Virus record (IMG/VR): IMGVR_UViG_3300023181_000002
Span: 35,883 to 99,882 of that record
Direction: 5' to 3' (one strand)
Origin: a virus
DNA: 64,000 nucleotides
This document shows positions 34,701 through 61,976 of this stretch, one piece after another (the stretch's first letter is position 1; each line of letters starts with the position of its first letter). Under the pieces are notes generated by a model, which searched no databases, was not told the origin of the DNA, and saw only the letters and a program-made list of their open reading frames with translations. The position numbers and the translations under genes are program-made.

Positions 34701-36656
34701 ACCCATTCCCTTACGCGTATCATCCTGACTGGTGATTTCTGGTAATGCCTGCTGAAAGAGTGCTTCTGTTTGTTGCGACTGATTGTTAATATCCTCCATC
34801 GCAAGATATTCTCCTGTCTGTGGATTCTTATCACCTAGCTGCTGTTCGATTGTTGCTTTCTGCGCTTCCAGCTTTGTAGCGGCAAGAGAATTGCCTTCAG
34901 ACTTTGCCTGATCAGCTTGCGCCTGTAATTGATCTACTTGCTGTTTCGCTCCTTCGAACTGTGTTTTCGCTGCCTGGATATTGTTACGCGTATCTGTGAT
35001 GTTAAACATCGATAACCGGTCCTGCGCGTCAAGATTCGGCATATCTTTAAACTCGTAGAAAGAGTCGTATAGCAGATCCGCCTTCTTCGCTACATTCTCA
35101 AGCTTTTGCTGATCAAGCTGCCCATTCGCATCATTAAACTGCCCATTCTGTGTTGCCACATCAAGGAGCGATTTAACGCGTGCATTAGTTTTAAGCTCTT
35201 CAATAGTCGCATTGGGATTGTTTTTAAGCTGCTCTTTGATGTCAGCATTCACAAAGGCACCCAATGTTTCGTGCATCTCTTTGGAGTTTGGCGCGAACGA
35301 GCCTATCGTCCCTCCAAGGAAACCTCCTAAAAGAGCACCATAAGTAGCATCTTCTAAAGTTTTATACGCATCCGTTTGGAATTCACCATTACCGGGAGAA
35401 GTTTGAGCGTCTCCCATTAAGTTGTTGTAGCCTCGCTGTGCGCCATAACTCGCCCACTCCTGAGCAAATTCTGTTGCTGCTTCAGGAAGCGCTCCTTTAG
35501 CGAACTTTCTTCCAAGATTTCCGACTTGCTTTTTAAGTACAGCCATTGAGCCTTGATTAGAAAGCTCGGCGACAGACTCTTTAAAGGTTTTTTCTACTAC
35601 GTCATTGAATAGTTCTTTCGTGATGCCTTTTGAAGCGAGATCAGAAATAGCCTGAGCGCTCTTATCTTTTACAACACGCTTAATAACTTCTTTACCGGCA
35701 TTGCCTTTCAAAGCATTTAATATACCTGCTTCACCCGCAAGTTCCAATGCTGATTGAACCAGGCTTGTACCCGTAGCATATAAAGTAGCTTCAGTACCTT
35801 TTAAACCTGCATCATGCGCATCATCCTGATTGCCACCATACATCTGCGCGAAAGACATTAAAAAAGAAGCCTTCTTTGTAGGAGCTAAAATTGAAACAAG
35901 GCTACCTACGCCTGAGCCTACACCCGCAAGCCATTTGTTTGCATCCGCAGCCTGGCTTAAATCTATCTCAATATGACCATCCGTGCCAGTTTTAAAACTG
36001 ACAGGATTTTGCTTTGTCGTTTCGTCTATCTCTACCCCAGCTTTTGAAAAGCCTTTGTCAATACTCTTTTTAATACCATCATACTGTTGACGGTAAATTT
36101 GAGCATCGGCAATATCTTTCGAGCTTGCCCAAGGCAATTTTGCCTTTAAGTCGAGAGATAATTGATTGGTGTCATTTAAGAAATCTGCCGTTCCTTCCGC
36201 AAGTCCTAGTACTGAATTCCACACAGAACCCATTAAAGCAGTCGTACCGCTTACCCGCTGTACAGGAGGCTTATTAGGTTGATCGATTTGTTGTACCTGC
36301 GGGGCAGCACCCGTTGCAGGTGTCACATCTGGAGAAGCAATATTCTGAGCACGTTGCTCTCTTCGGGATTGAACCTCTGACTGGCGTGCCGCTTTAGCAC
36401 TCGCTGCATTTTCTAAAAGCTTTGTATAACGTGAAGTTTGTCCGATGGTATCAAAAGCAGTAAAAGCCTGCGTAATGGCTTTCTCTTTCGCTTCACCTCC
36501 CTGTGCGATATACCCGTTCAATTGAGACTGCCACGCAATCGGATCGCGTCCGCTATCAACAAGCGCCTGCCTGTAAGAGTCAGGAAGCGTAACAGATTTA
36601 ATATCTGCAAAATAATCCAATGGCTTAACTTCGGTGGTCGGCTGCTGTTTTGCCAT
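28770..36656 (-). CDS. large ejected polyvalent protein (kinase + zincin metallopeptidase domains)
   Basis: EAATEFAQE/GALLGG cargo region; kinase GKGFESSVY..K..HNYLFPET.Y..QP..D..N..IDP (~33050-33500); GF..G.VYLN..TPLHEFGH.W..EEALA (~32200-32440). Confidence 0.8.
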   Translation of the reverse strand: MAKQQPTTEVKPLDYFADIKSVTLPDSYRQALVDSGRDPIAWQSQLNGYIAQGGEAKEKAITQAFTAFDTIGQTSRYTKLLENAASAKAARQSEVQSRREQRAQNIASPDVTPATGAAPQVQQIDQPNKPPVQRVSGTTALMGSVWNSVLGLAEGTADFLNDTNQLSLDLKAKLPWASSKDIADAQIYRQQYDGIKKSIDKGFSKAGVEIDETTKQNPVSFKTGTDGHIEIDLSQAADANKWLAGVGSGVGSLVSILAPTKKASFLMSFAQMYGGNQDDAHDAGLKGTEATLYATGTSLVQSALELAGEAGILNALKGNAGKEVIKRVVKDKSAQAISDLASKGITKELFNDVVEKTFKESVAELSNQGSMAVLKKQVGNLGRKFAKGALPEAATEFAQEWASYGAQRGYNNLMGDAQTSPGNGEFQTDAYKTLEDATYGALLGGFLGGTIGSFAPNSKEMHETLGAFVNADIKEQLKNNPNATIEELKTNARVKSLLDVATQNGQFNDANGQLDQQKLENVAKKADLLYDSFYEFKDMPNLDAQDRLSMFNITDTRNNIQAAKTQFEGAKQQVDQLQAQADQAKSEGNSLAATKLEAQKATIEQQLGDKNPQTGEYLAMEDINNQSQQTEALFQQALPEITSQDDTRKGMGRSFLNSNLFPDQDFSPDTETVLPDGSLIVRDNESTAIRQVNTIPVQPATDIVSQLDKGKYKPIQRFEKQYVPISNYQNYAQAAANIANNQTAHASAAATSPFDYRQDAADLIGVTAQAAQTLNTNPSVYDAISDRVTKAYDFYTQIIAQDQKSTTPSVPVLSEEDFQNVVGFLPSVNGKRVDPFEQTILAKQKELNIPAAVADVYTPSNDSIDTILDIEGGDTTVPVKRIDKAISELTATRKLWQNKRKASGRAYTLAQIDDVVAAIENDLNTLASEKSYQQAPELRPEPPVVAPIEEAPVNQAQEAAPIENNAPIETAQNSDTNTESAVSIQNIKDYAKASIEGQSLPQRLSPEIESGRAEGGIRNVEASLIARGFDSTDESTQNESRLKQERDLEAYAKEEGIWYENPDKELGEYYGKGFESSVYYTPDRKSLLKVNNLASHKDILTFFDRIAMHNYLFPETKYELEGFGRNKRGQFSAIVKQPLVQAKFSASLKDIQDSMKKLGFESVGKEHYALGDFLLSDINERDNALIDKDGNLFYIDPLIELNTAEKGFGGTALANEITDQDILNAENIQPITQGTNENPVSEGTRRNTRKSRSVKQQYAAQAQLASALESAQNNTEPVQPVAGSVEQVAEEVIPSEETDESITELIGQLDSVSEQIGSVDGQLQEVLRKLDPIINETAGDSSGGDQSTAPAAETVSELPVVAPGIVGNVIKQISKAFPNVDVVIPVNLKEFMNAAGLPISAKAPTGFIREGQVYLNPQTIESDPNTPLHEFGHIWTLWARQNDQALYDRGIALLSNSGYLKSVKRDPNYSKLPEQAQQEEALARAIGNNGESFVGNTRKADFKNWVKEVFGRIKEYFANVPAIETLTPEQLSNMEMDQFASKVAADILGGKEISGISSEEINAILNPSQEQAIETPVEEELAPEIIQELDKQEQAAISWDKPSIKPSEAIGQQITFDQAGTPMRGTIEGEEGDSYKIRGDKTKRIYTVPKSEINTNILFSFGAPAPGEQIGTHQELQDKAKVELESAGVFGVLASDLTGAQKTFIANTQKKYGWKYLGASEVNGVKTDENWSRDISKENDSYFLPGQNNEMIIMPLQGKKGAPNRIVKGIQESADFLEKQRVDGNAAYKVNHWLIQSSFKRLNNLETLVQGIDGFDRVLKSVIRDVKREASNVRNRALNIMGRGYEPARRDLGPYSTHRGSRTIDTVEKLPVQMIQWDRATQKSVVRNVLLPLGTIANLVATHQSQRSMGPEYTVRKVKDSAGTEYTEDHTSLVVDSFYDVDPDDPKLFFNDKETVGSVYKGVHFKKDVAMEADAKGDLQLLKTAQQYGLFTQDEMDRLEDFVTNSGPADFREGFKKIKNTFNDAKVRELLNKENEAINPGKPFKVIPDYSPVQSVKGISAQDKVNSFSPDLEDSRQLQERTARPDAVYAEDILDSFDSYKESVGHILGSTKLVHNLKSLQNAVTSDYDGENKGEITEILNDTIKNLQSYRQQQFESSKGQDSIKPLVTLMVKYTANTFRSNIGISTKQLGTMASALGLGYIKNKNLFSADVLGPLLKMSAGGSTIDRTAGGTLIETTGEGFKTALGTDTTEAAYIKEILGQDITDPAEKEKHEERYATVIQRLVYGQNQYTDTQGIGDLKFTSKGKAWAKQLYNKIDSFNEEYGMANIRRLDRAVIIAYYLAAKKEVAEDHSSLTPEQQADLIASKVTETLYLTNQMSDPADLTMTQRNPNFATRLVTMYSGQTQKLWNQLAGSAIEYYKYKDKVTPEEKAILLSRLKGSLVSNAIINPLWMASTNVAVGLFRAALNGDDDKDKNYWRDKFGFDYARYALGLAPGFASELLQTIISNIDNEPWADGILEVPGADTIDQLLKTAGETIQLINQWDGQTEKEVDKTIYDWINNTSKLVGTSGLAPKTWINPLVKRLNEKPTAKGLKEEDITLESPEGDENQYLEENGGEEEEVPEYLYD

Positions 36657-36717: not shown

Positions 36718-37884
36718 ATGATTTTAAAGGCATTCAAATATAGGCTTAATCCAACTAAAGAGCAATCTATTTTAATAGATAAGCATATTGGATCATGTCG
36801 GTTTGTTTATAATTTAGCTCTCGAAACTAAGCAAATAGCTTATGCAGGAAGCCAAATAAACCTATCCTGTTTTGACTTAATGAAGCAATTGCCTGACTTG
36901 AAAAAAGAATGCGAATGGTTGAAAGAAGTAAATAGTCAATCATTACAAGCATCAATTACAAACTTAGACAATGCCTACACTAATTTTTTCAAAGGTCAAT
37001 CTAACTTTCCTAAATTCAAATCAAAAAATAAAAGCACTCAAAGTTTCAATGTACCTCAAAGTATTACCCTAGAAAATGGGAGGCTAATTATCCCAAAGTT
37101 CAAAAAAGGCATTAGTGTTGTTCAACATAGAGCTTTTGAAGGGAAAATCAAACAAGCAACACTTTCAAAAACTCCTACCGGCAAATACTTTGCGTCTATT
37201 TTAGTTGAAATAGCTGACAATATTATAACTAAAAAGCTAATCACAAAAGAAAATACTATTGGTGTTGATTTAGGTATTAAGCACTTTTTAATAACCTCAA
37301 ATGGCAAGAAAGTTGCAAATCCAAGATTTTTAAAAAATTCATTATCTAAGCTAAAATATACTCAAAAAAAATATTCAAATAAAAAAGGTAAACAAAAAAA
37401 ACATAAACTTCAAAAACTCCATGAAAAAGTAGTAAATCAAAGAAAGGACTTTTTACATAAAGTTTCAAGTGATTTAGTCAAGAACCACGACACGATTGCA
37501 TTAGAGACGTTGAAAGTAAAAAACATGATTAAAAACCATAATTTAGCACAGGCAATTTCAGACGTTTCTTGGGGAACATTTGTAACAATGCTCGAATATA
37601 AAGCTAATTGGTACGGAACAAATATTATAAGAATTGGCACATTTGAGCCCTCTTCTAAGACTTGCTCTGACTGTGGTATAATAAATAAAGAACTAAAACT
37701 TTCTGATCGTGAATGGAGTTGCAAAAAATGCAATACAACTCACGATAGAGATATAAATGCAAGTATCAATATTAAAAACTTTGCATTAAGAAATTCGTGT
37801 ACGGAACATACACATAAAAATCGTAAAGAACTGCCAACATTGGTTGGAGTATTGACTTACGAAACCACTATTCATTTAGAGTAG
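36718..37884 (+). CDS. tnpB: RNA-guided endonuclease TnpB
   Basis: KAFKYRLNP, GVDLG, ALETL, CSDC/CKKC, HDRDINA; D-E-D triad intact. Confidence 0.95.
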   Translation: MILKAFKYRLNPTKEQSILIDKHIGSCRFVYNLALETKQIAYAGSQINLSCFDLMKQLPDLKKECEWLKEVNSQSLQASITNLDNAYTNFFKGQSNFPKFKSKNKSTQSFNVPQSITLENGRLIIPKFKKGISVVQHRAFEGKIKQATLSKTPTGKYFASILVEIADNIITKKLITKENTIGVDLGIKHFLITSNGKKVANPRFLKNSLSKLKYTQKKYSNKKGKQKKHKLQKLHEKVVNQRKDFLHKVSSDLVKNHDTIALETLKVKNMIKNHNLAQAISDVSWGTFVTMLEYKANWYGTNIIRIGTFEPSSKTCSDCGIINKELKLSDREWSCKKCNTTHDRDINASINIKNFALRNSCTEHTHKNRKELPTLVGVLTYETTIHLE

Positions 37885-37891
37885 TGGTAGT

Positions 37892-39508
37892 TCACTGATT
37901 AACTTTAGGTTGTGGTACCCAATCAAACACGGCATTCTGTTTCGCCGTAGCCTGATCAAAAATTTCATTCGCCGCTTTTTGTCCGGATAAAGTCTTCGTT
38001 GCCATTTGATCTGTCAAGGGATCATTGAAAAGATTTGTAACAGGGACATATCCTTTAAATACATATCCTTTTACTTCTTTCGAAGGAGATTTCCCGGTAG
38101 CCTTTGTTTTATAAATAGTCTTCAGCTCCTTACCCTGCACAGAGAATCCTGGAGTATTTTTACTTTTGTTAGCCTGATCTTCTGTAACGAATGCTTCAAA
38201 GTATTTCCATCCTCTATCAGGTAAAGTAGCACCTTTCATTAATCTACCCGTTTCAGCGGCTCCATCTGTGTAAATATAATTATCACTCTTCGATATGGTA
38301 TGAGGCACATCAGCAAGGTTGATAAAAGAACCATTGCCACTTGTATCAAGAATTCCCGGCAGAGTGCCAGAGAAAGCTTTCTTACCTTTAATTTCTTTCT
38401 CAGTGACACCCAATGAGCTATTAGCATATTTATCAGCTAAAGCGTTATCAAAGCGGTTAAACACGAGAGCCGGCTTACCTGCTACCGTAGTAGTTAACCC
38501 CGAAACAGGAATACCCAGTTGAGGAATCACCGTTGCGCCACCTGTTTGAGGATTATATGTTGCAGCGGCAGAACTTGCCAAAGGATTCGCCAAAGTTCTT
38601 TCAAAGTAACTTCTTCCTGAATTATCTGCTTTATTTTTTTCTTTTAAAGAATCTGCCAATGCTTTCTGCGCTTGAGCATTATTCTCGCTAATTTGAGAAC
38701 GCGTCAACTGCATACCCAATTTCTGGTCAGCCACTTTCAAATTGAAAAGTGTCTGATCTTCTATCGGATCTGTTTTATAGAAAACTTTTCTCCCCGCAAG
38801 ACTCTTTTGATAGTAATCTCTGCCGGCGTTCGCACCAAGCTCCTGCATCGCATAAGCCGCTTTCTCTTCATCTGTTACCGCCTGCCGCACAAACTTGCTT
38901 CCTCCAGGCGCGTACTGCTTGCCGAAATACTCAGCGGCATTCACCTTGGTTGGATCGTAAGAACCATTGAAGTTAACCCGGTCCGTTAATCCATTCTGGT
39001 AATCAAGTATCGCCTGCTGCGCTGATTTATACTTCCCGTCAGGGGTGAACTCTCCTACAAGCTCCTGCTGCTTATTCATCGCGTCACGGATAGCCTCCAT
39101 CTGCGCTTTGTTACTTTGTGCTTGAATGAAAACAGGAGAATTTAAGAGATTGTTCTTTAATTGGGTTAACGCGATATTGCCTTCCGTTTCGAAGAACTTA
39201 CGCGCGTTGCCTTGGTAATTTTTGTCTATATTCTTGATTATATCACTCAGTTGGCTATCTACAAACCCCGCCACTTTAATTTTATCAGGTGCCTCCAGAG
39301 GCATCGCGCGGACCTGATTCACAAAGTCCATTTGACCTTGCACCGCAGCCTGCGATTCCTGTGCATCCTGACGCGCTCTTGCTTCAAGGATATTTCCGTA
39401 TTGAAGCTCCTGCTGTTTCTGCTGCTCACGCGCTGCCCAGTTAGCCCGAGGCTTTAAAGCGACAGCTAAATCAGAAGCACTGTTATTAAAGTAACCTGAG
39501 ATGGGCAT
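37892..39508 (-). CDS. ejected cargo protein
   Basis: Q/A-rich helical protein between cargo genes. Confidence 0.6.
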   Translation of the reverse strand: MPISGYFNNSASDLAVALKPRANWAAREQQKQQELQYGNILEARARQDAQESQAAVQGQMDFVNQVRAMPLEAPDKIKVAGFVDSQLSDIIKNIDKNYQGNARKFFETEGNIALTQLKNNLLNSPVFIQAQSNKAQMEAIRDAMNKQQELVGEFTPDGKYKSAQQAILDYQNGLTDRVNFNGSYDPTKVNAAEYFGKQYAPGGSKFVRQAVTDEEKAAYAMQELGANAGRDYYQKSLAGRKVFYKTDPIEDQTLFNLKVADQKLGMQLTRSQISENNAQAQKALADSLKEKNKADNSGRSYFERTLANPLASSAAATYNPQTGGATVIPQLGIPVSGLTTTVAGKPALVFNRFDNALADKYANSSLGVTEKEIKGKKAFSGTLPGILDTSGNGSFINLADVPHTISKSDNYIYTDGAAETGRLMKGATLPDRGWKYFEAFVTEDQANKSKNTPGFSVQGKELKTIYKTKATGKSPSKEVKGYVFKGYVPVTNLFNDPLTDQMATKTLSGQKAANEIFDQATAKQNAVFDWVPQPKVNQ

Positions 39509-42500
39509 TATATTTTTACGGTTGTGGGTGTTTTCTTATTTAACGAGTCTCTTAAAGCCTGAGCATAGATTTGCGGATAAAGATCGGCCAATTGATTCTG
39601 CTTCTGCGCTCCCGATAATTGTGCTTGCTGCAACTGATCATACGTTGTGCCGGCACCATACTGAGCGTTAAACTGATTACGGTCTGCAATATTCTGAAGT
39701 CCGGCATCCAACAGCCCTACACCAGCCGTTCTCTGTGCGAGTGCCGCTTGTTGATCCTGCGCAAAAATATTCTGATCAAGGGTTAAATCTCCCTGAACTA
39801 CCTTCTGATAATTCGCGTAGTTCTGACGTTGCAACTGATCGCTTTGTAAAGCCGCATTCAATGTGCCTTGATTCTGTTGAGACGAAAGTTGTCCCAATGC
39901 GCCAAGCACTGCTCCCTGAGAAGCACCACCTCCCGCTACCTGCTTGATCGTGTTCACCCCTAACGCGTAATTGTTTTGAAGACCCTGATTTACTGCAGCT
40001 TGTTCTGCGGCTGTAAAACCCTGGTTCTTTCTCGCATACACATCCTGAAGCATGTTTGTATACTCAGTCGTCGGCTTGTAGCGCGGTATCGGATTGTTCA
40101 TCGAAATAACAGCTCCCACACCAGCAGTAGCCAAGTCAGCGATGTTCCCAAAAAGATTTTGTCTTTGAGAAGGTGTCAAGCCTGATTGGTTTGCCGCTAC
40201 AACTGTTGTTGAAGAAGGCGTGCCTGTGTTTACAGCAACAAGATTCTGTAAAGGATTTTGCCCTCCAAAAGAAACCTGATTTACTCCGTTACCATAAGAT
40301 AACGGCGAAGTTTCTGTAACCGGATTTCCTTTGCTATCATAACCCCGTATCGCAGATGCTATTGAAGGTTTATTCGCAGAACCCAGCAAAGGTTGCAAAT
40401 CAAGACCTGTAATTGCTTTCGCAATAGAACCTCCGATATTACCTTTATTCAAAGACTCTACAAAAACCTCTCTTCCGGGGTTTGTTGCATTCCAGTTCGT
40501 TACTGCTGCTGAAGTCTGCGGACCGTACAATCCATCTACCTTAATAGCAGGTAATCCATTCGCAGTAGCCCATTCATTGTAAGAATTTTGAAATTCTTTT
40601 ATATCAGGCTTTGCGCCAGCTCGGGTTTGGTATTTAACCTTACCACCTCCCGCAAAATTATCTTGCTCCATAACCGGCTGTTTGAACTGGTTCGTATTTG
40701 TTTTATATGTATTAGGATTGGACTTTCTAAGTCCCGCTAATCTTCTTTGATAGGCATCCATTGTTTCTCCTGGCAGTGCCGATGGAAGAGATTGCAATGG
40801 TTGCACAACAGGGATTTGCGGTGCTACATAAACAGGCACCTGAATATCTGGCAACACCATTTGAATCTGATCAGTATTCTCAATAGGATCAACATTTGGC
40901 ATTACAACTCTTTGCGGAGCAACCGGTGTCTGTAATCTCTGAGCAAATTGTTCTTTACGTGTTGGAGTAACGGTAGGCACTACTGTCTTTTGTGTCGGCT
41001 GATAAATAACTTGTTGATTTGGCTTTACATTATCATACTTAGCAACAGTTCTTATATCTTGTATAGCTTCTCTTCTTGATGATATTTTGGCAGGTATTAA
41101 TTTTTTATTATCATCAGTCGCGAATACATTTGCCAATTCTTCGGGCTTAATGTCTTTGAAATAATTGGTAACTCCACTCGGTTTGATACTATCTGAATAT
41201 AACTGTTTTGGTATATTTTTATTTATAACTCCTGCCACAAAATCATCTACTTGATTTAAAGTACCTTTACGGGTTAACCCTGTAAGTTGAGGGAAATTAT
41301 GAACAACATTCATTGCTTGCTTCCAAGGATCAGTCTCTTTATGATAATTTCCAGTAGGAAGACTGGGCAATATTTTACTAGCGACATTAAACAAGTTACT
41401 AAGAAGAGTTTCTTTATCCTTCACTTGTCCATTATTGTACCCAGCTTTAATTAAAGCTGCTGTAACCTGATTATAATTATTATAAAGAGCAGCGCTATCA
41501 TTATACGCTCTTATACGAGGATCATTAGGATTGCTCGTTATATATGGCTTTGGTTTAGGCTTACCACCGTCTGCAAAATTTTGATCTCCCTGAAAATCTT
41601 TATGCGTTAAAAGCTCATCGTAGATGTGATCACCCAATAACGCCTTCTTTTTATCCAAGGATAACGGAGATCTCATGATCTGTTCCTGTTTTAAATTACT
41701 TTCCTGATCGAAAATACGCTCTCCAAAGCGCGCTGCACCAATGGAGAGGCTTTTTATCATATGCTCTACAGGAGTGTTTTCTATAGATACTTTTGGAAGC
41801 ATATAGTAATCCTCTGTAGTCTTGTCATTTTTATCGTAAATAATGGCACCGTCAGCAGTCTTCCCTCCGTCAGCGAATCCATTTAAAGTAGGATAGCCAA
41901 ATTTATCATCGATAGCACTTCCGTAAATTGGATTCGGCAACGTTGAAGTACCTACTTGTTTTGTTTTCTTCTGGTCATCGAGCCAGGTTATATTGCTATT
42001 GCCTGAAGCAGGTTCCAAAATAGAATTAGTCTGTCCCATCCCCACCGTGCTGTTCATTTGAAATTGATTCGCATTACCGGGGTTAATCATGTTCTGATTT
42101 TGATTCTGACTGTATTGAGTCAATAAGTTCGTAACATTACTTAACAGTGGATTTTGTTGAGACTGCCCTGCATTCGCTTTCAAGGCATCCAAGAAAGAAG
42201 GTTTCGCTAAAGCACCTACTGCACCGCCAAAACCATTCGAAGTTGCGGCTGCTACAGGGGCTGAGCTAAAACCATTACTCTGCGCAAGATTCCCCCGTAT
42301 TAAACTGTCAAAAGATTTCCCTGCTTCAGAGGTTGTGAAACCGGAGTCTGCCGGCTTAGATGAACTTGCAAAAAGATTGGATGATTTGGCTGCACCTCCG
42401 GCAGCACCAGCTACCTGAGATAATATGTTTATTAAAGCATCATTACCTTCTTCTTTGTTGTTAGTAGCTATACTCTGAATCTGAGTACTTGTTCCTTTTG

Positions 42501-42771
42501 TAAGTTTTTCACTCCATGAATTAAGTCCGGTATTAGCAAGCGAACCTAATTTGTTGCCTAAAATGGCCCCTGCTGGTCCAAGATAGTACCCGCCAACAAG
42601 AGATAATACCGGACTCAAGGCTTTATCAACTACAGAACCGAAAACGTTGGATGTACCGTCAGTATTCTGCCCGGAAATTGCCAAACGCGTTTTGCCCCAC
42701 CAATTACTACTAAAATTTCGTAATCTTGGCTGACTTGTAATCTGAGGGGCTATTGTATTAAATAATGCCAT
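39508..42771 (-). CDS. ejected cargo protein with peptidoglycan-binding domain and FAxGG motifs
   Basis: Gly-zipper N-terminus; IKEFQ...VDGLYGPQT..A PG-binding motif; three FA(D/G)GG. Confidence 0.65.
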   Translation of the reverse strand: MALFNTIAPQITSQPRLRNFSSNWWGKTRLAISGQNTDGTSNVFGSVVDKALSPVLSLVGGYYLGPAGAILGNKLGSLANTGLNSWSEKLTKGTSTQIQSIATNNKEEGNDALINILSQVAGAAGGAAKSSNLFASSSKPADSGFTTSEAGKSFDSLIRGNLAQSNGFSSAPVAAATSNGFGGAVGALAKPSFLDALKANAGQSQQNPLLSNVTNLLTQYSQNQNQNMINPGNANQFQMNSTVGMGQTNSILEPASGNSNITWLDDQKKTKQVGTSTLPNPIYGSAIDDKFGYPTLNGFADGGKTADGAIIYDKNDKTTEDYYMLPKVSIENTPVEHMIKSLSIGAARFGERIFDQESNLKQEQIMRSPLSLDKKKALLGDHIYDELLTHKDFQGDQNFADGGKPKPKPYITSNPNDPRIRAYNDSAALYNNYNQVTAALIKAGYNNGQVKDKETLLSNLFNVASKILPSLPTGNYHKETDPWKQAMNVVHNFPQLTGLTRKGTLNQVDDFVAGVINKNIPKQLYSDSIKPSGVTNYFKDIKPEELANVFATDDNKKLIPAKISSRREAIQDIRTVAKYDNVKPNQQVIYQPTQKTVVPTVTPTRKEQFAQRLQTPVAPQRVVMPNVDPIENTDQIQMVLPDIQVPVYVAPQIPVVQPLQSLPSALPGETMDAYQRRLAGLRKSNPNTYKTNTNQFKQPVMEQDNFAGGGKVKYQTRAGAKPDIKEFQNSYNEWATANGLPAIKVDGLYGPQTSAAVTNWNATNPGREVFVESLNKGNIGGSIAKAITGLDLQPLLGSANKPSIASAIRGYDSKGNPVTETSPLSYGNGVNQVSFGGQNPLQNLVAVNTGTPSSTTVVAANQSGLTPSQRQNLFGNIADLATAGVGAVISMNNPIPRYKPTTEYTNMLQDVYARKNQGFTAAEQAAVNQGLQNNYALGVNTIKQVAGGGASQGAVLGALGQLSSQQNQGTLNAALQSDQLQRQNYANYQKVVQGDLTLDQNIFAQDQQAALAQRTAGVGLLDAGLQNIADRNQFNAQYGAGTTYDQLQQAQLSGAQKQNQLADLYPQIYAQALRDSLNKKTPTTVKI

Positions 42772-43911: not shown

Positions 43912-46900
43912 TTAGTATTGATTCGGAGAATTAATTCGGAACTTAAAATCGCTTGACGTGAAACTTACCTGAGTATTTTTACCGTCAATAAGCTGCAAAG
44001 AATTGTTAACCGTAATACGAACTTTCAAATAAGTGCTCTTCAACCGCTCTTTCTCCATTAGAGGATCAAACTCATTGGATGGTCCTGACAAGAGCGATCC
44101 ACTCCATTTATATCTATAATCATTATGAACAATATTAGCTGCCTCTAATTCTGTAAGAATAACCTCATGGATATTATCCTGAGCTTGGAATAATATTTTA
44201 GAAATCCTTTCCCATCCTTCATAGTTAACATTTAACCATATAGAATCGAATGTTTTCCTGAAATTCGGCGCAGGATTAACAATATATTCCAAAATAGTTT
44301 CTTTAAACTCTCTGTAATAATTGCCATATAAGCCATGATTCGCCAGGAATATCTCGTGATGTAACCCCGATTTAGGACTTGAAGTTAATAAAAATCTACG
44401 AATATTGAAATAAAATGGCGCGATGTCGTACGAATACCCATGGAAGTTACCAGCATCCTTGTTAAAAATTAAAGAAAATGAAGATAGCTCATCTTCACGG
44501 TTGTAATCATTTACCGGATTGCTATTCTGTTGCCCTTCGTAAATGAATGACGTAAGAACTTCATTGTTTTCAGTATCCAAGGCAGAAATCACATCTATAA
44601 ATTGTCCTTCCTGATGCGATATATTTCTGTCAAAATAAATTGACTTTTCAACTACAGGATCAGATATGGAATTAGTGTCAGAAGCTGACTGAATTCCTGC
44701 TTGACTAAATATAACAATCTTACCCATTCTGGCATCAAAAAAGCCAAAATTATCGTTAAACACCCATGCACTATTTTTATGTTGAGTGCCATAGATTTTA
44801 CTCACAGGACGAACACCACCAAACACTGCTCCACTGGAGATTTGTAAAGCACCAGCATCTGTCGCAATAGCCCTGTCTGCTTGAGTAAGCAAAGAGAAAG
44901 TTCCCTTTTCTTGAATTATATAAATGTAATTAAATGCCGGAATTAACCTTTGTATAGCTCCAAACTCCCCTGTAGCGAATCCGTAATCGGATGTTAACTT
45001 TTGACGGAAAGAATCTTCAAGTTCTCCATCAATTTTCTTGGGAGAAAATCTTATAATATTAGGTTGGTAATCAACAATTTTTATCGTACTTGGCTTAGGA
45101 AAATAAAATTTAGTATTCTCCTCTAAAAGAAGGACCTCATTATAAGACCACGACTCAGTCTGCTCAGAATTTATACCATTTGAAAGCTGTATTGCTCCAT
45201 TATCACACGCTACATCCTGTGGGTAAACGCAGTTAGCAGCAAACCTTCTCCCATATAAAAGCGCTAGGTTATAACGGCTTTCATTGGGAATAATATGAGA
45301 AAGTGAATAATTAGGATATTTTCCATTAAATTTAGAACAATCCATATACTCTGGATATAGGCGGACGTAATCAAATAGATTCACGTAACAATCTCCGCCC
45401 CATATCTCAACGCCTGAAAAGACATACGCTGTCAAATTTCCCTGTCCATCAACTTGCTTTTCAGCCTGGTCAAGTATTGCCTGAGTAATTGGCTGGTAAT
45501 GCCCTGTTGAAAAATACCTTCTTGTCTCAAGTGAGCTTTCATCAGCACCTGTGTAATAATTTGGTGGCGTAACAAGCATATTCGCTGTCCGGTATGTAGA
45601 CTTGGAATTACTATCCTCAATCGCATCAACGGATTCAAAATCCTGTAATTTCATAATTACAGAATAAGGTTGCTGAGTAGAAGAGAAAGGACTTGCAGGA
45701 TTTATTATTTCATCAGGATTTACAGATCCATCCTGAAAAGCGGAATTCCAGAACAAAGTTGCCCAAGTGTCTGCCCGGTAGTCATAAATATCAGAAGCTT
45801 CCGGATCGAATTCTGCTTTACTATATATTCCAAATTTTCCTTTTGTATGAAGGAAAGCGAATTTTATACGAGACTTATCTCCTATTTTAGGGCGACCATA
45901 GTTTAATAATGTTAAATATTTAGGCCATGACAACGGCAAGCTTCTATAGCTTTTAGTATAAGCATGGTTCTTTCTGTCTCCCGTAATAGCTTTCTTCTCA
46001 GAGTATGCTTTATGCGCAAAACCTATATGCTGCATCTCACCGGAAAGATATCCTTCAGGCAATGCTTGCTCTATGAGAATATCAGGAGAATGATAATTAA
46101 AATAATGCGCAGCACTTAAACCGTCTTCCTGTCCATCATTATCCTGTTTCTTTTTATAATTTGATCCTAAAGCTCCGCTATAATTGTGACCATTGGGAAC
46201 TGATCCGTTTGCATATTCGGGTCTATATTCGTTAGAATACCAAAGCGTAGGCTGGACAAAACGATCATTATCAGTATCAGTTTTCCCATTACTTGTCGTG
46301 TAGCAATTTATAAGCATACCCTGATTGGCAACTCTTCTTATACGCTCTGTTCTGACAATCTTAAATCCGGAAATGTTCAACTTTCCGAATTTATCATACA
46401 GCAAATTTTTAGGAATAACAATATTCGAGAACACAGCACCCATGGCTTTTAAATCGAACTGCCCATCGTTAGCCTGGCGCGTCAAAGTCCAGTCCGTAGG
46501 ATTACCCTGAGCGTCTTTCGTATCGTACTGCTGAGGAAAGGTATAATCCGTAATATGCTGCACAAACAAAGGATTCCCTTTTCGATCTATAAAAAGCAAT
46601 CCAAAAGGCTGCGTTTCTCCACGGAAATATCCTTTGTAAAGGTGATTGAATAACTGGCCTTTATAATTGGTATAATCGTCAACACAATTATAAACCTCTT
46701 TATTATCTCCAAAATTATTGATTACAAACTCTTCATCATAGGTAAAGGTGTTCGTGATCGGATCATTGTCATTACGCCCTGTAACCGGGTTAAAAACAGC
46801 ACTGAAAGGAGGCTCCAATGTATTATCTGCCCTAAAATATTTTATCTTAGGGGATATTGTTACACTAGACAAGTCAATAGCTAGGTCGGGAAGTGTTCTT

Positions 46901-48033
46901 ATATTAGCATCCCATGTACGTCCCTCCTGTTGTGTGGTTGTCTCTACTTCAAGCTGCGTTTCAAATCGCTGATTTAATTCATCCTGCGTGATACCAATAC
47001 CTGTGTGACCTATCAGATCAACCAATAAAACCGGCGATGTTATATCGTAAATTTTATATTGTGTTGCTTCCTGGAATGCTTTCGAAGATTCGTGATATAC
47101 ATATCCGATAGCGATTTGATCCCAACGCGTATCTATGCCATCAATAATCCACTTCTGCCCCTCCTCTGTCATCACATTGGAGATATTCATCGTCCGGTTG
47201 TGATGATTAGTTTTATAGGCATTATTGTATGTAGTAGCGCCAACAGTAATATCTCCATCAAGTCTTTCTGTCGTAACAAATACTGGACGCGTCAAATGGG
47301 ACCAAACCGAAGAGTGTCCCGTTTTAGAAATGTATTTACATACGAGCTGATATTGCCCGGACTTTAGCTTCCCTGGAATACGCTTCCAGAATTTCATCTT
47401 TGGGAATATCAAATCCATGCGCTCGTCAAAAGCATGAACAGAAAGAGATTTTGGGTAGGTTGATCCCGATGTGCAAGAGTCAACCTGATTATGATATGTA
47501 GTGCCATCTGCTTTATAAAACAGCGGCAGATTAATTACTCTTTTTTGATTATATCCGTCAACCCAATATACCCGGTCAATGAATTCATTCTCGTAGACAT
47601 TAAATCCATGGATATATTTGTCAATGTTAAAATTTAACAAGTCTCCATTCGGGTCGTTTCTGTCATTGAAAAGAGTAGTGTATACAGCATATCCTTCTTT
47701 GTAGACGTTATCATTGACTGTTAAAAATCCAATCTCTGAATTTGTTTTATTCGTGCTGAATATTACAGCACCTTTCGTCGTTTCGATTGATCCTATCGGC
47801 TGATATCCTTCACAAAGAGAAAATGAAAAAGAATTCCCTTTAGCATTTGTAAAAGCGCGGGTCTTTCCATCCTTCACATTCTCATCCAAAGACTTATTTA
47901 CATTGTCTGTTCTGTTATGGCTTAGACGACCACCAATTGCATACCGATACGAACTATTGGGTTGTTCGTGCGGATCAATGTCGGTTAACATCCCATTGAC
48001 AAAAGTATTCGTGAAAGTCTGTGATGTGGCCAT
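43912..48033 (-). CDS. muzzle / tail stabilization protein
   Basis: 1373 aa; NTF..GM.TD, YWVDG.N..R.IN, YFRGE....G, WGGD.Y, YGTQH. Confidence 0.8.
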   Translation of the reverse strand: MATSQTFTNTFVNGMLTDIDPHEQPNSSYRYAIGGRLSHNRTDNVNKSLDENVKDGKTRAFTNAKGNSFSFSLCEGYQPIGSIETTKGAVIFSTNKTNSEIGFLTVNDNVYKEGYAVYTTLFNDRNDPNGDLLNFNIDKYIHGFNVYENEFIDRVYWVDGYNQKRVINLPLFYKADGTTYHNQVDSCTSGSTYPKSLSVHAFDERMDLIFPKMKFWKRIPGKLKSGQYQLVCKYISKTGHSSVWSHLTRPVFVTTERLDGDITVGATTYNNAYKTNHHNRTMNISNVMTEEGQKWIIDGIDTRWDQIAIGYVYHESSKAFQEATQYKIYDITSPVLLVDLIGHTGIGITQDELNQRFETQLEVETTTQQEGRTWDANIRTLPDLAIDLSSVTISPKIKYFRADNTLEPPFSAVFNPVTGRNDNDPITNTFTYDEEFVINNFGDNKEVYNCVDDYTNYKGQLFNHLYKGYFRGETQPFGLLFIDRKGNPLFVQHITDYTFPQQYDTKDAQGNPTDWTLTRQANDGQFDLKAMGAVFSNIVIPKNLLYDKFGKLNISGFKIVRTERIRRVANQGMLINCYTTSNGKTDTDNDRFVQPTLWYSNEYRPEYANGSVPNGHNYSGALGSNYKKKQDNDGQEDGLSAAHYFNYHSPDILIEQALPEGYLSGEMQHIGFAHKAYSEKKAITGDRKNHAYTKSYRSLPLSWPKYLTLLNYGRPKIGDKSRIKFAFLHTKGKFGIYSKAEFDPEASDIYDYRADTWATLFWNSAFQDGSVNPDEIINPASPFSSTQQPYSVIMKLQDFESVDAIEDSNSKSTYRTANMLVTPPNYYTGADESSLETRRYFSTGHYQPITQAILDQAEKQVDGQGNLTAYVFSGVEIWGGDCYVNLFDYVRLYPEYMDCSKFNGKYPNYSLSHIIPNESRYNLALLYGRRFAANCVYPQDVACDNGAIQLSNGINSEQTESWSYNEVLLLEENTKFYFPKPSTIKIVDYQPNIIRFSPKKIDGELEDSFRQKLTSDYGFATGEFGAIQRLIPAFNYIYIIQEKGTFSLLTQADRAIATDAGALQISSGAVFGGVRPVSKIYGTQHKNSAWVFNDNFGFFDARMGKIVIFSQAGIQSASDTNSISDPVVEKSIYFDRNISHQEGQFIDVISALDTENNEVLTSFIYEGQQNSNPVNDYNREDELSSFSLIFNKDAGNFHGYSYDIAPFYFNIRRFLLTSSPKSGLHHEIFLANHGLYGNYYREFKETILEYIVNPAPNFRKTFDSIWLNVNYEGWERISKILFQAQDNIHEVILTELEAANIVHNDYRYKWSGSLLSGPSNEFDPLMEKERLKSTYLKVRITVNNSLQLIDGKNTQVSFTSSDFKFRINSPNQY

Positions 48034-56207: not shown

Positions 56208-56239
56208 TTTGATAATATTCACAAAAATACATATCTTTG
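56208..56239 (+). promoter_or_regulatory. consensus Bacteroidota promoter TTTG-N20-TATCTTTG
   Basis: Exact -33/-7 consensus, 3 nt before ATG 56243. Confidence 0.75.
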
Positions 56240-56242
56240 ATC

Positions 56243-56527
56243 ATGATCTTAGGAGATATTGTAAAACAACAGCGCCGTTTAAAGAAGTTAACCCAGAAAG
56301 AGTTATCCGTGAAAGCGGGTGTTGCGATGACGACAATCTCTTTTCTGGAATGCGGCCAGGGAAGATACCCGAACAGTGAAACCCTGACGAGTTTAGCTTT
56401 AGCGTTGGACCTGTACCCGGCATATCTTATTCTGAGTAGTATCCGTGAAGAGGATGTTCCTGCGGGGAACCGTAAAAGGTTTGAAGTTTTGAGAAAGGAA
56501 ATGATTGAGCTTTTAAAGCTATCATAA
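56243..56527 (+). CDS. XRE-family HTH regulator
   Basis: LGDIVK..R....LTQ.ELS...GV....IS.LE.G...P...TL..LA.AL. Confidence 0.9.
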   Translation: MILGDIVKQQRRLKKLTQKELSVKAGVAMTTISFLECGQGRYPNSETLTSLALALDLYPAYLILSSIREEDVPAGNRKRFEVLRKEMIELLKLS

Positions 56528-58757: not shown

Positions 58758-58789
58758 TTTGTCCCTTTAAAATTCAGTACCTAGATTTG
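58758..58789 (+). promoter_or_regulatory. consensus Bacteroidota promoter TTTG-N20-TAGATTTG
   Basis: Exact -33/-7 consensus upstream of 58822. Confidence 0.75.
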
Positions 58790-58821
58790 GGTAGTTTTTA
58801 AAATTTAACCAAATCAATACC

Positions 58822-59130
58822 ATGTCAGGAAAATTAATCTCCCTAAAAGAAGCCACCGAAAGAAAGGAAGCATACCGTAAACTGCCGCTTGCTGCGGATC
58901 AGATATATGTAGAGTCTGAATTCTACAGCGTAGATATCTTAAAGAAACTTGTTGGAGATGTGCCTATAAAGGATGTAGCCGGGCTGAGAGTGAGCTTTGC
59001 ACAGGTGGGCCGCGAAGGGAAATCTGTTCTGACGACCGTTTTAGAGTTGGTTCTGAAGGAGGAGGTTAAAACTGAAACTATACAAGAAGCTGCGGGAGAT
59101 CCGCCGGCTTGTCCCATATTCTGTTCATGA
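58822..59130 (+). CDS. small protein with C-terminal DPPACPIFC motif (putative signal precursor)
   Basis: ISL.EA....Y, F.S...L..L, GLRV.F, T.VL, terminal CxxxC. Confidence 0.7.
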   Translation: MSGKLISLKEATERKEAYRKLPLAADQIYVESEFYSVDILKKLVGDVPIKDVAGLRVSFAQVGREGKSVLTTVLELVLKEEVKTETIQEAAGDPPACPIFCS

Positions 59131-59801
59131 AGCAATATTTAACATTTTTTGAAAAATATCCAATCATTGCTGTAAGCATTTTTGCAACATTTCTACCTAT
59201 AATAATATTCACAATCCGCAGGAGCAATAAAAAGCCTTTGCGGGTTTTGTTTTTATGGATGGCACTTAAAGTGTTGTTCGACCTCGTTGGTCTTCACTTT
59301 GCATCACAAAGTAAGAATGATTTATTTATCTGTAATGGATGGGTACTTATTAGCTTTATGTGTAATGCATGGTTCTTTTATGAAGTATTTGTTGATGAAA
59401 GAATGAAGAATAAGATAAAATATATCTCTATCGTCTATTGTTCAATATTCCTAATAGACTTCATTATATGTAATCCTGACTTTTCAGATTTTTATAGTCA
59501 TAGATATGTTTCTATATCATTTCCTCTGCGCTCAGCGTTTTTAATTTACTTCTGTCTTATATTTTATCAAGAAGTAATTAAAGAACTTTATATTGATCAT
59601 ATTGAGCGTTCAGCGATATTTTGGGCAGTAAGCTCTATTTTGATATACAACGCAACATCCTTATTTACTACCGTAATAAACCATCAGGAATTCTCCTGGG
59701 ATAGTAAGCGTATGATGGTTATGATCATGTATATTCCTTATGTAATGGATACTTTTCAAATGGCGATAATTTCAGGAGGTTTGCTTGCTGAGAAGAAATA
59801 A
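59127..59801 (+). CDS. 7TM membrane protein (putative receptor)
   Basis: Seven hydrophobic segments, FW..S.ILIY in TM6, ATGA-coupled to upstream gene. Confidence 0.75.
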   Translation: MKQYLTFFEKYPIIAVSIFATFLPIIIFTIRRSNKKPLRVLFLWMALKVLFDLVGLHFASQSKNDLFICNGWVLISFMCNAWFFYEVFVDERMKNKIKYISIVYCSIFLIDFIICNPDFSDFYSHRYVSISFPLRSAFLIYFCLIFYQEVIKELYIDHIERSAIFWAVSSILIYNATSLFTTVINHQEFSWDSKRMMVMIMYIPYVMDTFQMAIISGGLLAEKK

Positions 59802-59922: not shown

Positions 59923-60957
59923 ATGAATTTAACAACATTGCAATTTAGGATAAAGGATGAAACTAGCAGAAGCTGCCTAATTGAAATGGCTAATTCTGTT
60001 AATTTTGTTTGGAATTATTGTAATGAAGTTAATCAGGAACGATGGAAGAAATTTAATAAAACATTTTCTGCATTTGATTTAAATAAGTTAACGTCTGGCT
60101 GTGCAAAGGATTTAGGTTTACACTCTCAAACTGTCCAAGCTATATGTGAAGAATACTACAAATCCTGTAAGCGGCGTAAAAAGGCTCGTTTAAAGTGGCG
60201 TTCTAGTAAGAAATCACTTAAATGGATTCCATTTAAAGGTTCTGGGATTAAAGTTGAGAATGACAAGATTGTTTATGCTGGTCATGTTTTTAAATTCTGG
60301 AAATCTAAGCCTTTCGATGGTAAGATTCGTTTTGGATCATTCTGTCAAGACTCAAAAGGTAGATGGTTTGTGAATTTAGTTATTGAGAAAACTATCCATA
60401 AAAGAACATCTACAGGTAATGTTTGTGGAATTGATTTGGGCTTAAAAACACTTTTAACTCTTTCTGATGGAGTAGAATTCGATCGCGGAAACTTAACCAA
60501 AAAATATGAAAATAAGTTAGCTATTGCGCAACGAGCAAAAAAGAAAAAGCAAGTAACAGCAATCCACGATAAAATAAAAAACCAAAGGAGAGACTGGAGT
60601 CATAAAGTAAGCACGTTACTCATAAGAGAATACGACAAAATAGTGGTTGGAAATGTTTCCAGTTCTCAATTAATGAAAACAAAAATGGCCAAAAGCGTCT
60701 CTGATGCTGGATGGTATAGCTTCAAAGAGATGCTTTCATATAAATCCATTAGGGTTGGTGTCGAATATAAAGAAGTGAATGAAAGTTTTTCAACCGTGAC
60801 ATGCTCCGTTTGTAAAGAGCGGAGCGGCCCAAAAGGTTTGCTCGGATTGAAAGTAAGAGAATGGGTATGCAGCCATTGCAACACCTCACATTTGCGAGAT
60901 GTGAACGCGGCTAAAAATATACTATCATTCTCCCTACAGGACATTGTAGGCCATTAA
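59923..60957 (+). CDS. tnpB: compact TnpB with non-canonical RuvC-II
   Basis: GIDLG, IVVGNV (no Glu), VNESFST, CSVC/CSHC, HLRDVNAA. Confidence 0.9.
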   Translation: MNLTTLQFRIKDETSRSCLIEMANSVNFVWNYCNEVNQERWKKFNKTFSAFDLNKLTSGCAKDLGLHSQTVQAICEEYYKSCKRRKKARLKWRSSKKSLKWIPFKGSGIKVENDKIVYAGHVFKFWKSKPFDGKIRFGSFCQDSKGRWFVNLVIEKTIHKRTSTGNVCGIDLGLKTLLTLSDGVEFDRGNLTKKYENKLAIAQRAKKKKQVTAIHDKIKNQRRDWSHKVSTLLIREYDKIVVGNVSSSQLMKTKMAKSVSDAGWYSFKEMLSYKSIRVGVEYKEVNESFSTVTCSVCKERSGPKGLLGLKVREWVCSHCNTSHLRDVNAAKNILSFSLQDIVGH

Positions 60958-61346: not shown

Positions 61347-61976
61347 TCACTCAGGATACTCCTCGTCCCAATATCTAAACTGATATCCACCCTCAAAGAA
61401 CCTGTAAAAGCCCGACTTCTGCTCCCATGGCCCCGGAAGGATTAACGTGTAACACTCACCCTGCGGCAGAGAAATAATCTGATGGATATGGTTCGCTTCG
61501 ATGGTATGAACGGTTCCAGGTTTTCTTTCGATATCTTCGTAGTGCCATAATCCATATGATCCAATAGTATAGACCCTTTCAATGTATCCTCCGGAGAGAA
61601 TGTGGCTTGTAAATGAGAAAGGATGATTGTGTGGGTCACCTGAATCAATCTCCGTGAAGTGATGGATAACCGCGTCGAAGGGAAGTCCTAATATATGTTG
61701 CTTTGTAAAGATGTCTGACATCTTCTCTGTTTTGATTTCAATTTCCATAATTAAATATCCCATATTGTCGTAAGCATCCAGAAACCATTTACTTTTAGCA
61801 ATATTAGCGTATCGCTCTTTAATACTTAATGCCGATACTGATGCCTTGTTAAGCATTCGATCTTTTCTCTCAGCGCGTTTCTTTTCGCGATTCGCTTCCC
61901 ATTCATTCAATTTTTCAGGGGTCATCCCGTCAAATACGGTGTCTATTTCTAAGTTTAATTTATCCCAGTTTTCCAT
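61347..61976 (-). CDS. cupin-fold protein
   Basis: HHF...D..DPHNHPF.F.SHILSGGY.E ... H.I ... TL...GP. Confidence 0.75.
   Translation of the reverse strand: MENWDKLNLEIDTVFDGMTPEKLNEWEANREKKRAERKDRMLNKASVSALSIKERYANIAKSKWFLDAYDNMGYLIMEIEIKTEKMSDIFTKQHILGLPFDAVIHHFTEIDSGDPHNHPFSFTSHILSGGYIERVYTIGSYGLWHYEDIERKPGTVHTIEANHIHQIISLPQGECYTLILPGPWEQKSGFYRFFEGGYQFRYWDEEYPE

Follow-up and report, generated by a model that had tools for sequence, protein, structure and literature searches.

A coupled gene pair in a complete phage genome

We analysed a 64,000-nucleotide stretch of viral DNA (hereafter the window), corresponding to bases 35883–99882 of the 99,882-bp IMG/VR virus record IMGVR_UViG_3300023181_000002. 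The record has direct terminal repeats, is rated complete, and encodes terminase, portal and tail fibres; the host of this ~100-kb phage is probably a member of the Bacteroidota. The subject of the analysis is a cassette at positions 58758–59801 of the window, in which a promoter-like site precedes two coupled genes, one for a small protein with a cysteine tail and one for a protein with seven predicted transmembrane helices (7TM protein). An initial annotation, made by reading the sequence alone, had described a 102-aa protein ending DPPACPIFCS that is ATGA-coupled to a 224-aa seven-helix protein, and the open reading frames (ORFs) together with helix prediction confirm this description. The features of the cassette, in window coordinates, are as follows.

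58758–58789 (+): Bacteroidota-type promoter-like site, TTTG (58758–58761), 20 nt, TAGATTTG (58782–58789), ending 32 nt before the ATG
58778–58793 (no strand): operator-like inverted repeat of 16 bp, TACCTAGATTTGGGTA (TACCTA-N4-TnGGTA), overlapping the -7 box
58822–59130 (+): small-protein gene, 102 aa, with globular domain 1–80, disordered linker 83–92 and C-terminal CPxxC tail
59110–59124 (+): CPxxC codons, C97-P98-I99-F100-C101
59127–59801 (+): stand-alone 7TM gene, 224 aa, coupled to the small gene, predicted N-terminus out and C-terminus in
59553–59654 (+): best-conserved block of the 7TM protein, comprising the cytoplasmic end of TM5, the acidic loop 5 (E..I.ELY...L.RS) and the FW motif at the start of TM6

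The coupling consists of an overlap between the TGA of the small gene (59128–59130) and the ATG of the 7TM gene (59127–59129). Homologues of the 7TM protein begin at the matching Met, and a TTG further upstream, at 59109, is not needed.

Neither protein matched Pfam, NCBIfam, PHROGs or PADLOC, and searching 24 members of each family against the same four collections returned no recurring family. When both family profiles were run against PDB sequences, no meaningful match emerged; searching GenBank phages at the DNA and protein levels returned no match to the pair, and scans of genome and viral contigs with each protein singly turned up no relative. That both ORFs are real genes is shown by their homologues, which occur in other phages and in the genomes of many Bacteroidota.

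Homologues of both genes in a bacterial four-gene unit

The search with a profile built from the phage 7TM proteins extended to a single distant bacterial protein (P0016, E 1.5e-4), and the family of this protein gave 268 matches, in Puia and its relatives, leading to 48 genome loci. In ~46 of these 48 Chitinophagaceae loci, the order is small protein, 7TM protein, histidine kinase and response regulator wherever the contig is long enough. The Chitinophagaceae unit encodes a ~160-aa ...CPPxC... protein, a 222-aa 7TM protein, a 266-aa kinase (HisKA_3 and HATPase_c) and a 219-aa regulator (Response_reg and GerE), and the kinase gene overlaps the 7TM gene by ~34 nt. The N-terminus of the kinase is made up of 5–25 residues, one membrane helix and a K/R-rich stretch, followed by the DHp domain. 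Because this short N-terminus with its one helix leads into DHp, the kinase is devoid of a sensor domain. The unit was found in Puia, Flavitalea, Terrimonas and many metagenome-assembled genomes, and we found no description of it in the literature. There are several independent units per genome, and in three Chitinophagaceae loci (L017, L034 and L038) the small gene is separated from the kinase gene by a tandem array of two to four 7TM paralogues.

When phage and bacterial profiles were compared by hhalign, the 7TM profiles aligned at 97% (E 8.7e-11, 203 columns) and the small-protein profiles at 93.8% (E 1.7e-7), the latter aligned through CPxxC. On the strength of these profile alignments, the two phage proteins are homologous to the products of genes 1 and 2 of the bacterial unit. 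The phage pair shares with the unit its gene order, tight coupling, invariant CPxxC, FW motif and predicted N-out/C-in topology, but lacks the kinase and the regulator, and it differs further in the long-branched clade that its proteins form, in the short form of the small protein and in having an inverted repeat of its own.

To escape the bias of a single lineage, we also ran the phage-only 7TM profile against 401 genomes sampled evenly across the Bacteroidota. Matches were obtained in 21 of the 401 genomes, the best of them at 43.7 bits. The initial annotation had stated that Bacteroidota chromosomes carry GLR.YF...CP..C and FW...G.L.Y pairs beside a kinase and a regulator, which the profile searches and gene neighbourhoods confirmed, and it had set linkage of the homologues to kinases as a test of its proposal. 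Indeed, a kinase adjoins the 7TM gene in all 16 loci that were fetched, 14 of the kinases being of the HisKA_3 type and two, each with one helix at the N-terminus, of the PAS-HisKA-HATPase_c type. All 14 HisKA_3 loci also have a regulator gene next to them. The CPxxC small protein is present in 12 of the 16 loci, directly upstream of the 7TM gene in 11 and beyond the kinase in one (L065), while in L067 the protein encoded upstream is lipoprotein-like and has no CPxxC motif. With a combined profile, the 7TM family was detected in 86 of the 401 genomes, and single genomes had as many as seven copies. In the bacterial loci, overlap of the 7TM gene with the kinase gene is usual, and neither an exporter nor a peptidase gene was found beside the operons.

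A candidate 7TM-kinase fusion at L052:5941–7371 was rejected: it is a decayed 7TM copy with several in-frame stops that runs in frame into the kinase gene, and it provides no Rosetta-stone evidence. Among the ~150 bacterial matches listed of ~180, no open frame was long enough for such a fusion.

In the phage itself, no HATPase_c, HisKA_3 or Response_reg domain was detected at E<=1 in the complete 99,882-bp genome, window included. The earlier remark that the window contains no kinase or regulator thus holds for the genome as a whole.

The small protein and its CPxxC tail

The C-terminus of the 102-aa protein reads ...AAGDPPACPIFCS (DPPACPIFCS). In the alignment of 24 phage and bacterial small proteins, C97, P98 and C101 are the only invariant residues; besides the CPxxC near its C-terminus, the phage protein has a G-x-[RK]-x-[YF] strand motif. 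An AlphaFold2 model calculated from this alignment (pLDDT 78) has residues 1–80 in a compact arrangement of two helices and a beta-hairpin, and the Cys tail follows a disordered linker (83–92), which places CPxxC on a flexible tail. No fold match to the model was found in the PDB (Foldseek E>=0.3; best VIA Z 2.7), nor did we find a thioredoxin-like or other known metal-binding fold.

The phage protein begins without a signal peptide or leader, its N-terminus, MSGKLISLKEATERKE, being free of hydrophobic segments. The reading frame is closed by a stop 30 nt ahead of the ATG, with no upstream start in frame. Because of the missing signal peptide and the position of this stop, the phage small protein is most likely cytoplasmic. 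Many bacterial homologues run on for 2–40 residues past CPxxC, whereas the phage protein is a short form that ends 1–5 residues past the motif; the short form also occurs in some bacteria, for example at L057. The proposal in the initial annotation that the disulfide loop is released as a peptide is difficult to reconcile with the lack of a signal peptide, the folded 1–80 domain and the many homologues that continue beyond CPxxC.

Like all the phage proteins, most bacterial small proteins lack an N-terminus resembling a signal peptide or lipobox. Such N-termini are present in four bacterial proteins (L058:1009–1416, L063:2215–2679, L064:917–1447 and L067:2129–2635), two of which, L058 and L063, sit in units with PAS-HisKA rather than HisKA_3 kinases. 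Three long matches to the small protein (P0007, P0008 and P0010) are repeat-rich adhesins and were judged spurious.

The 7TM protein

The helices of the 7TM protein are predicted at residues 12–31, 36–58, 64–88, 91–114, 128–153, 158–185 and 193–223. Mean K+R counts are 3.3 in loop 1, 2.9 in loop 3 and 2.7 at the C-terminus, as against 0.75–1.0 for the N-terminus and loops 2, 4 and 6. This K/R enrichment of loops 1 and 3 and the C-terminus points to an N-out/C-in topology, with the acidic loop 5 in the cytoplasm. An Atlas model reached a pTM of 0.83, its structural neighbours in the Atlas being unnamed Bacteroidota clusters, while the single-sequence fold was poor (pLDDT 51).

The family has no invariant residue, the nearest to one being W166 of the FW motif. 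No His, Cys or Asp is conserved across the family alignment, which argues for a scaffold or sensor rather than an enzyme. The suggestion that the 7TM protein might act as a processor found no support, given that the family has no such conserved residues and the operons no exporter or peptidase. Microbial rhodopsins have a helix-7 Lys and a Bac_rhodopsin domain, and the 7TM protein has neither: as the initial annotation had stated, TM7 (193–223) contains no retinal-binding Lys, its only Lys residues being those of the terminal EKK, and there was no Bac_rhodopsin match in Pfam.

Related phage cassettes and a tail that goes with the 7TM gene

An exhaustive search recovered about six relatives of the small protein, of 90–107 aa, all with CPxxC at the end. 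The coupled pair is also present in two further IMG/VR records, L002 (96,243 bp) and L003 (95,459 bp), and on L073, a metagenome fragment of 2.5 kb. Another viral scan with the phage 7TM profile, and the single metagenome scan, recovered these three and no others. The pair is thus intact in four phage loci, at 30–39% identity. The L002 phage and the window phage have portal proteins that are 77% identical, several small early genes at 40–53% and the pair at 37–39%, while nothing further in common between the L003 phage and the window phage was detectable within 16 kb. In L003 the next co-oriented gene after the pair encodes an AntA antirepressor. Neither the L002 nor the L003 record contained a HATPase_c or Response_reg domain. 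Five phage-type 7TM proteins cluster together on a long stem (support 99/97); two of these, P0014 and P0015, come from short contigs that may or may not be viral.

Comparison of L073:900–2100 with L002:7880–9070 revealed a recombination breakpoint within the small gene. From the promoter to about codon 85 of the small gene, the two DNAs are 88–98% identical, and identity then drops sharply to 37–70%, a level that holds from the linker and Cys tail to the end of the 7TM gene. At the protein level, the globular domains of the two small proteins are 95% identical, while the tails read PPPCPTNCL in L002 and SVCPDDCLTDN in L073, and the 7TM proteins are only 39% identical. The nearest relatives of the L073 7TM protein are P0014 (57%) and P0015 (54%). 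The small protein P0005 probably neighbours the P0015 7TM protein, as judged by identical contig statistics, and it has the CPDDC tail of L073, yet its globular domain is only 43% identical to that of L073. The CPDDC tail type hence accompanies the clade of L073, P0014 and P0015 7TM proteins. The tail DPPACPIFCS is likewise identical in the window protein and P0004, whose globular parts are 35% identical.

Because the breakpoint keeps the Cys tail with the 7TM gene, these alignments hint that the tail is an element matched to a particular 7TM protein; the pattern is as expected for such a pairing, in a small sample. The covariation of ligand and receptor that the initial annotation had anticipated therefore finds an echo in the association of tail types with a 7TM clade, which in a sample of this size is a hint only. 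With the same globular domain and different tails and 7TM proteins, the natural recombinants L002 and L073 make recognition between the partners directly testable.

The promoter-like site and the inverted repeat

The TTTG-N20-TAGATTTG pattern upstream of the small gene corresponds to the Bacteroidota promoter consensus. The initial annotation had spoken of a perfect host-type promoter, and the consensus is indeed present at 58758–58789, but its count in the 64-kb window is at chance level (2 against 2.02 expected). The promoter call is instead based on the intergenic position and on related elements upstream of the homologous phage cassettes. The sole other perfect TTTG-N-TAnnTTTG match in the window (56208–56239) lies just ahead of a gene for a 96-aa HTH_3 (XRE-type) regulator at 56237–56527 (+), the site and gene together spanning 56208–56527. 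This HTH_3 protein may be a phage regulator, and it could bind the inverted repeat in the cassette.

The inverted repeat is present in all four phage loci (window, L002, L003 and L073), at -44 to -48 from the ATG. A loose version of its pattern matches twice in the window, against 0.47 expected. It is single-copy in the complete phage genomes G000 and G404, and there are two copies in the third phage record: the second copy, TACCTAGAATTTGGTA, is at G405:C1:30117–30132 in the record of the L003 phage, ~31 kb from the cassette, and was seen in that phage alone. The 7-2-7 geometry of the repeat recalls NarL-family sites. When sought upstream of 30 bacterial operons, the repeat was not found, which leaves the idea of a shared operator for the regulator of the bacterial operon unsupported.

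Neighbouring genes

The cassette is surrounded by small early or accessory genes in a mosaic region of DNA. The next gene after the 7TM gene encodes TnpB (59923–60957, +). Together with a second copy at 36718–37884 (+), it is one of two TnpB (OrfB_IS605 / Cas12f1-like TNB) genes in the phage genome, both without tnpA, and the related L002 phage has no TnpB downstream of its 7TM gene. Further on, a 209-aa protein encoded at 61347–61976 (-) matches phrog_4786, which carries a cysteine dioxygenase annotation (E 1.9e-19), an unusual accessory gene to be found near the gene of a Cys-tailed protein. The window also contains three very large ORFs of 2627, 1086 and 1372 aa (28770–36656, 39508–42771 and 43912–48033, -), for which there were no PHROG matches at E<=1e-5.

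Interpretation of the cassette

The most economical reading, by inference, is the one suggested in the initial annotation, that the pair plugs into a host two-component system. More specifically, we propose that the pair is a phage copy of the input half of the undescribed Bacteroidota four-gene unit and that it modulates a resident host kinase, a reading which, from the sequence comparisons, we would put at slightly better than even (a probability of about 0.52). The pair would be expressed after infection from the host-type promoter, and the phage 7TM protein would insert in the host inner membrane and engage a resident sensor-less kinase through contacts in the membrane and via the cytoplasmic loops. 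The small protein would remain in the cytoplasm, where it would use its flexible CPxxC tail to act on the 7TM protein; this tail would be the element that fits a particular 7TM partner, and it may serve as a switch responding to redox state or metal. As a result, the kinase might be switched on, or shifted to phosphatase mode as by SaePQ and LiaF (see below), and the regulon of the host regulator would be re-set.

Several observations weigh against this proposal. The host may or may not have a kinase of this family. The phage proteins are only ~13–24% identical to the sampled bacterial homologues and sit on a long branch, and proteins so divergent may have gained a different partner. Moreover, since this inverted repeat was not found upstream of the 30 bacterial operons examined, shared control by the regulator is unsupported. 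Lastly, given the exported-type small proteins of L058, L063, L064 and L067, the small protein might act on either side of the membrane.

The long stem that separates the phage clade from all sampled bacterial homologues would also be expected if the captured pair now served a kinase-independent membrane function, such as superinfection exclusion, membrane remodelling, or the timing of lysis or of an antirepressor. The absence of a kinase from three phage records, the AntA antirepressor gene that comes next in L003 and the location of the cassette among small early or accessory genes all fit such a role, which we consider rather unlikely and yet worth keeping in mind: the loop 5/FW block and the invariant CPxxC are kept as in the kinase-linked bacterial copies, the bacterial family was never away from a kinase in the 16 sampled loci, and neither a PADLOC defence model nor an annotated PHROG was matched. 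We think it improbable, if attractive, that the CPxxC tail is a docking key for its own 7TM protein, that phages swap units of tail and 7TM gene by recombination in order to retarget host kinases, and that the inverted repeat is the operator of a host NarL-type regulator, which would close a viral feedback loop that both senses and alters the signalling state of the host. If true, this would make the cassette a new class of phage sensor module built from two families without a described function.

The cysteines themselves could be the point of the system, in that the CPxxC tail might sense redox state or a metal (Cu or Zn) and the 7TM protein relay the signal to phage or host regulators, with kinase output being optional. 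The copper-binding CPDxC motif of Sco proteins resembles the Cys-x3-Cys arrangement with Pro after the first Cys, and CPxxC is the sole feature that is invariant over 24 diverse members, carried on a flexible tail after a disordered linker. Given that there is no conserved third ligand and that no thioredoxin-like or known metal-binding fold was found, a sensor of this kind appears distinctly improbable as a full account, and it is compatible with modulation of a host kinase rather than exclusive of it. A released peptide signal, with the Cys loop cleaved off and the 7TM protein as its processor or receptor, in phage-phage communication or jamming akin to Agr or arbitrium, was the scenario favoured in the initial annotation. 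The order of small protein, polytopic protein, kinase and regulator does parallel agrD-agrB-agrC-agrA, and agr genes have been found on phages (PMC3901668); in addition, discrete tail types co-vary with the 7TM clade and a few bacterial homologues are exported. We nonetheless regard this scenario as very unlikely, because the small protein has no signal peptide, leader, conserved cleavage motif or in-frame upstream start, residues 1–80 form a conserved folded domain rather than a leader, and many homologues extend 2–40 residues past the supposed loop, while the 7TM family has no conserved residue of catalytic type, the pair has no AgrB or AgrD match in Pfam, and the operons have no exporter or peptidase. 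Finally, the TnpB element directly downstream and the mosaic surroundings could be taken to mean that the pair is passenger DNA, taken up from a host not long ago and serving no purpose in the phage. It is hardly credible that this is so, as both genes are intact in four loci at 30–39% identity, complete with coupling, invariant motifs and upstream inverted repeat, and no close bacterial donor was detected (best genome match 43.7 bits).

Relation to known systems and significance

The proposed modulation of a host kinase has its closest likeness, by inference, in systems where the gene of a kinase that lacks a sensor domain is preceded by genes for a small auxiliary protein and a polytopic membrane protein. 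In the SaePQRS system of S. aureus, SaePQ forms a ternary complex with SaeS that brings the kinase to phosphatase mode (PMC5083920), and in LiaFSR the LiaF protein regulates LiaS negatively (PMC3543457). The HisKA_3/NarL class includes both the LiaS-type kinases and most kinases of the bacterial four-gene unit. Beyond this, no sequence or fold relationship to the pair was detected: none of the 24 members had a Pfam or PDB sequence match, with the 7TM model too poor (pLDDT 51) for a fold search, SaeQ has four helices, not seven, and SaeP is a lipoprotein without CPxxC. To our knowledge, the accessory proteins of these two systems do not occur on phages.

The C. difficile phage phiCDHM1 carries agrD, agrB and agrC without a response regulator (PMC3901668), and it resembles the window phage in that part of a host signalling locus is present with no response regulator. 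phiCDHM1, however, has a kinase and a true peptide-pheromone pathway, while the window phage has neither a kinase nor a peptide precursor or the signature of a processing enzyme. The Agr system uses a ~45-aa precursor and the AgrB peptidase with catalytic His and Cys, whereas the small protein here is 102 aa long with a folded 80-residue domain, and the 7TM family has no invariant His or Cys. Arbitrium, in turn, relies on a secreted AimP pro-peptide and the cytoplasmic TPR protein AimR, in contrast to the present pair, where there is no signal sequence and the partner is a membrane protein. An early phage protein acting on host histidine kinases has been described in the Pseudomonas phage LSL4, namely PIT4 (PMC10714779). 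PIT4 is a soluble orphan protein that binds kinase domains, and it was not captured from a host as a homologue of an accessory sensor pair.

In summary, the pair is a real, conserved phage accessory module, a variant of the theme of phages that carry parts of host signalling systems, and it is made up of two uncharacterised families. New here are CPxxC as the sole invariant feature, the breakpoint by which tail and 7TM gene are transferred together, and the inverted repeat that overlaps the promoter. If the proposed modulation of a resident kinase holds, then a widespread signalling unit, which we did not find in the literature searched and whose 7TM family occurs in about one-fifth of the sampled Bacteroidota genomes, would have a sensor-less kinase that appears to depend on two accessory families without a Pfam entry or solved structure. 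The phage, in turn, would carry only the sensing half of a host two-component system, unlike phiCDHM1 with its quorum-sensing set or PIT4.

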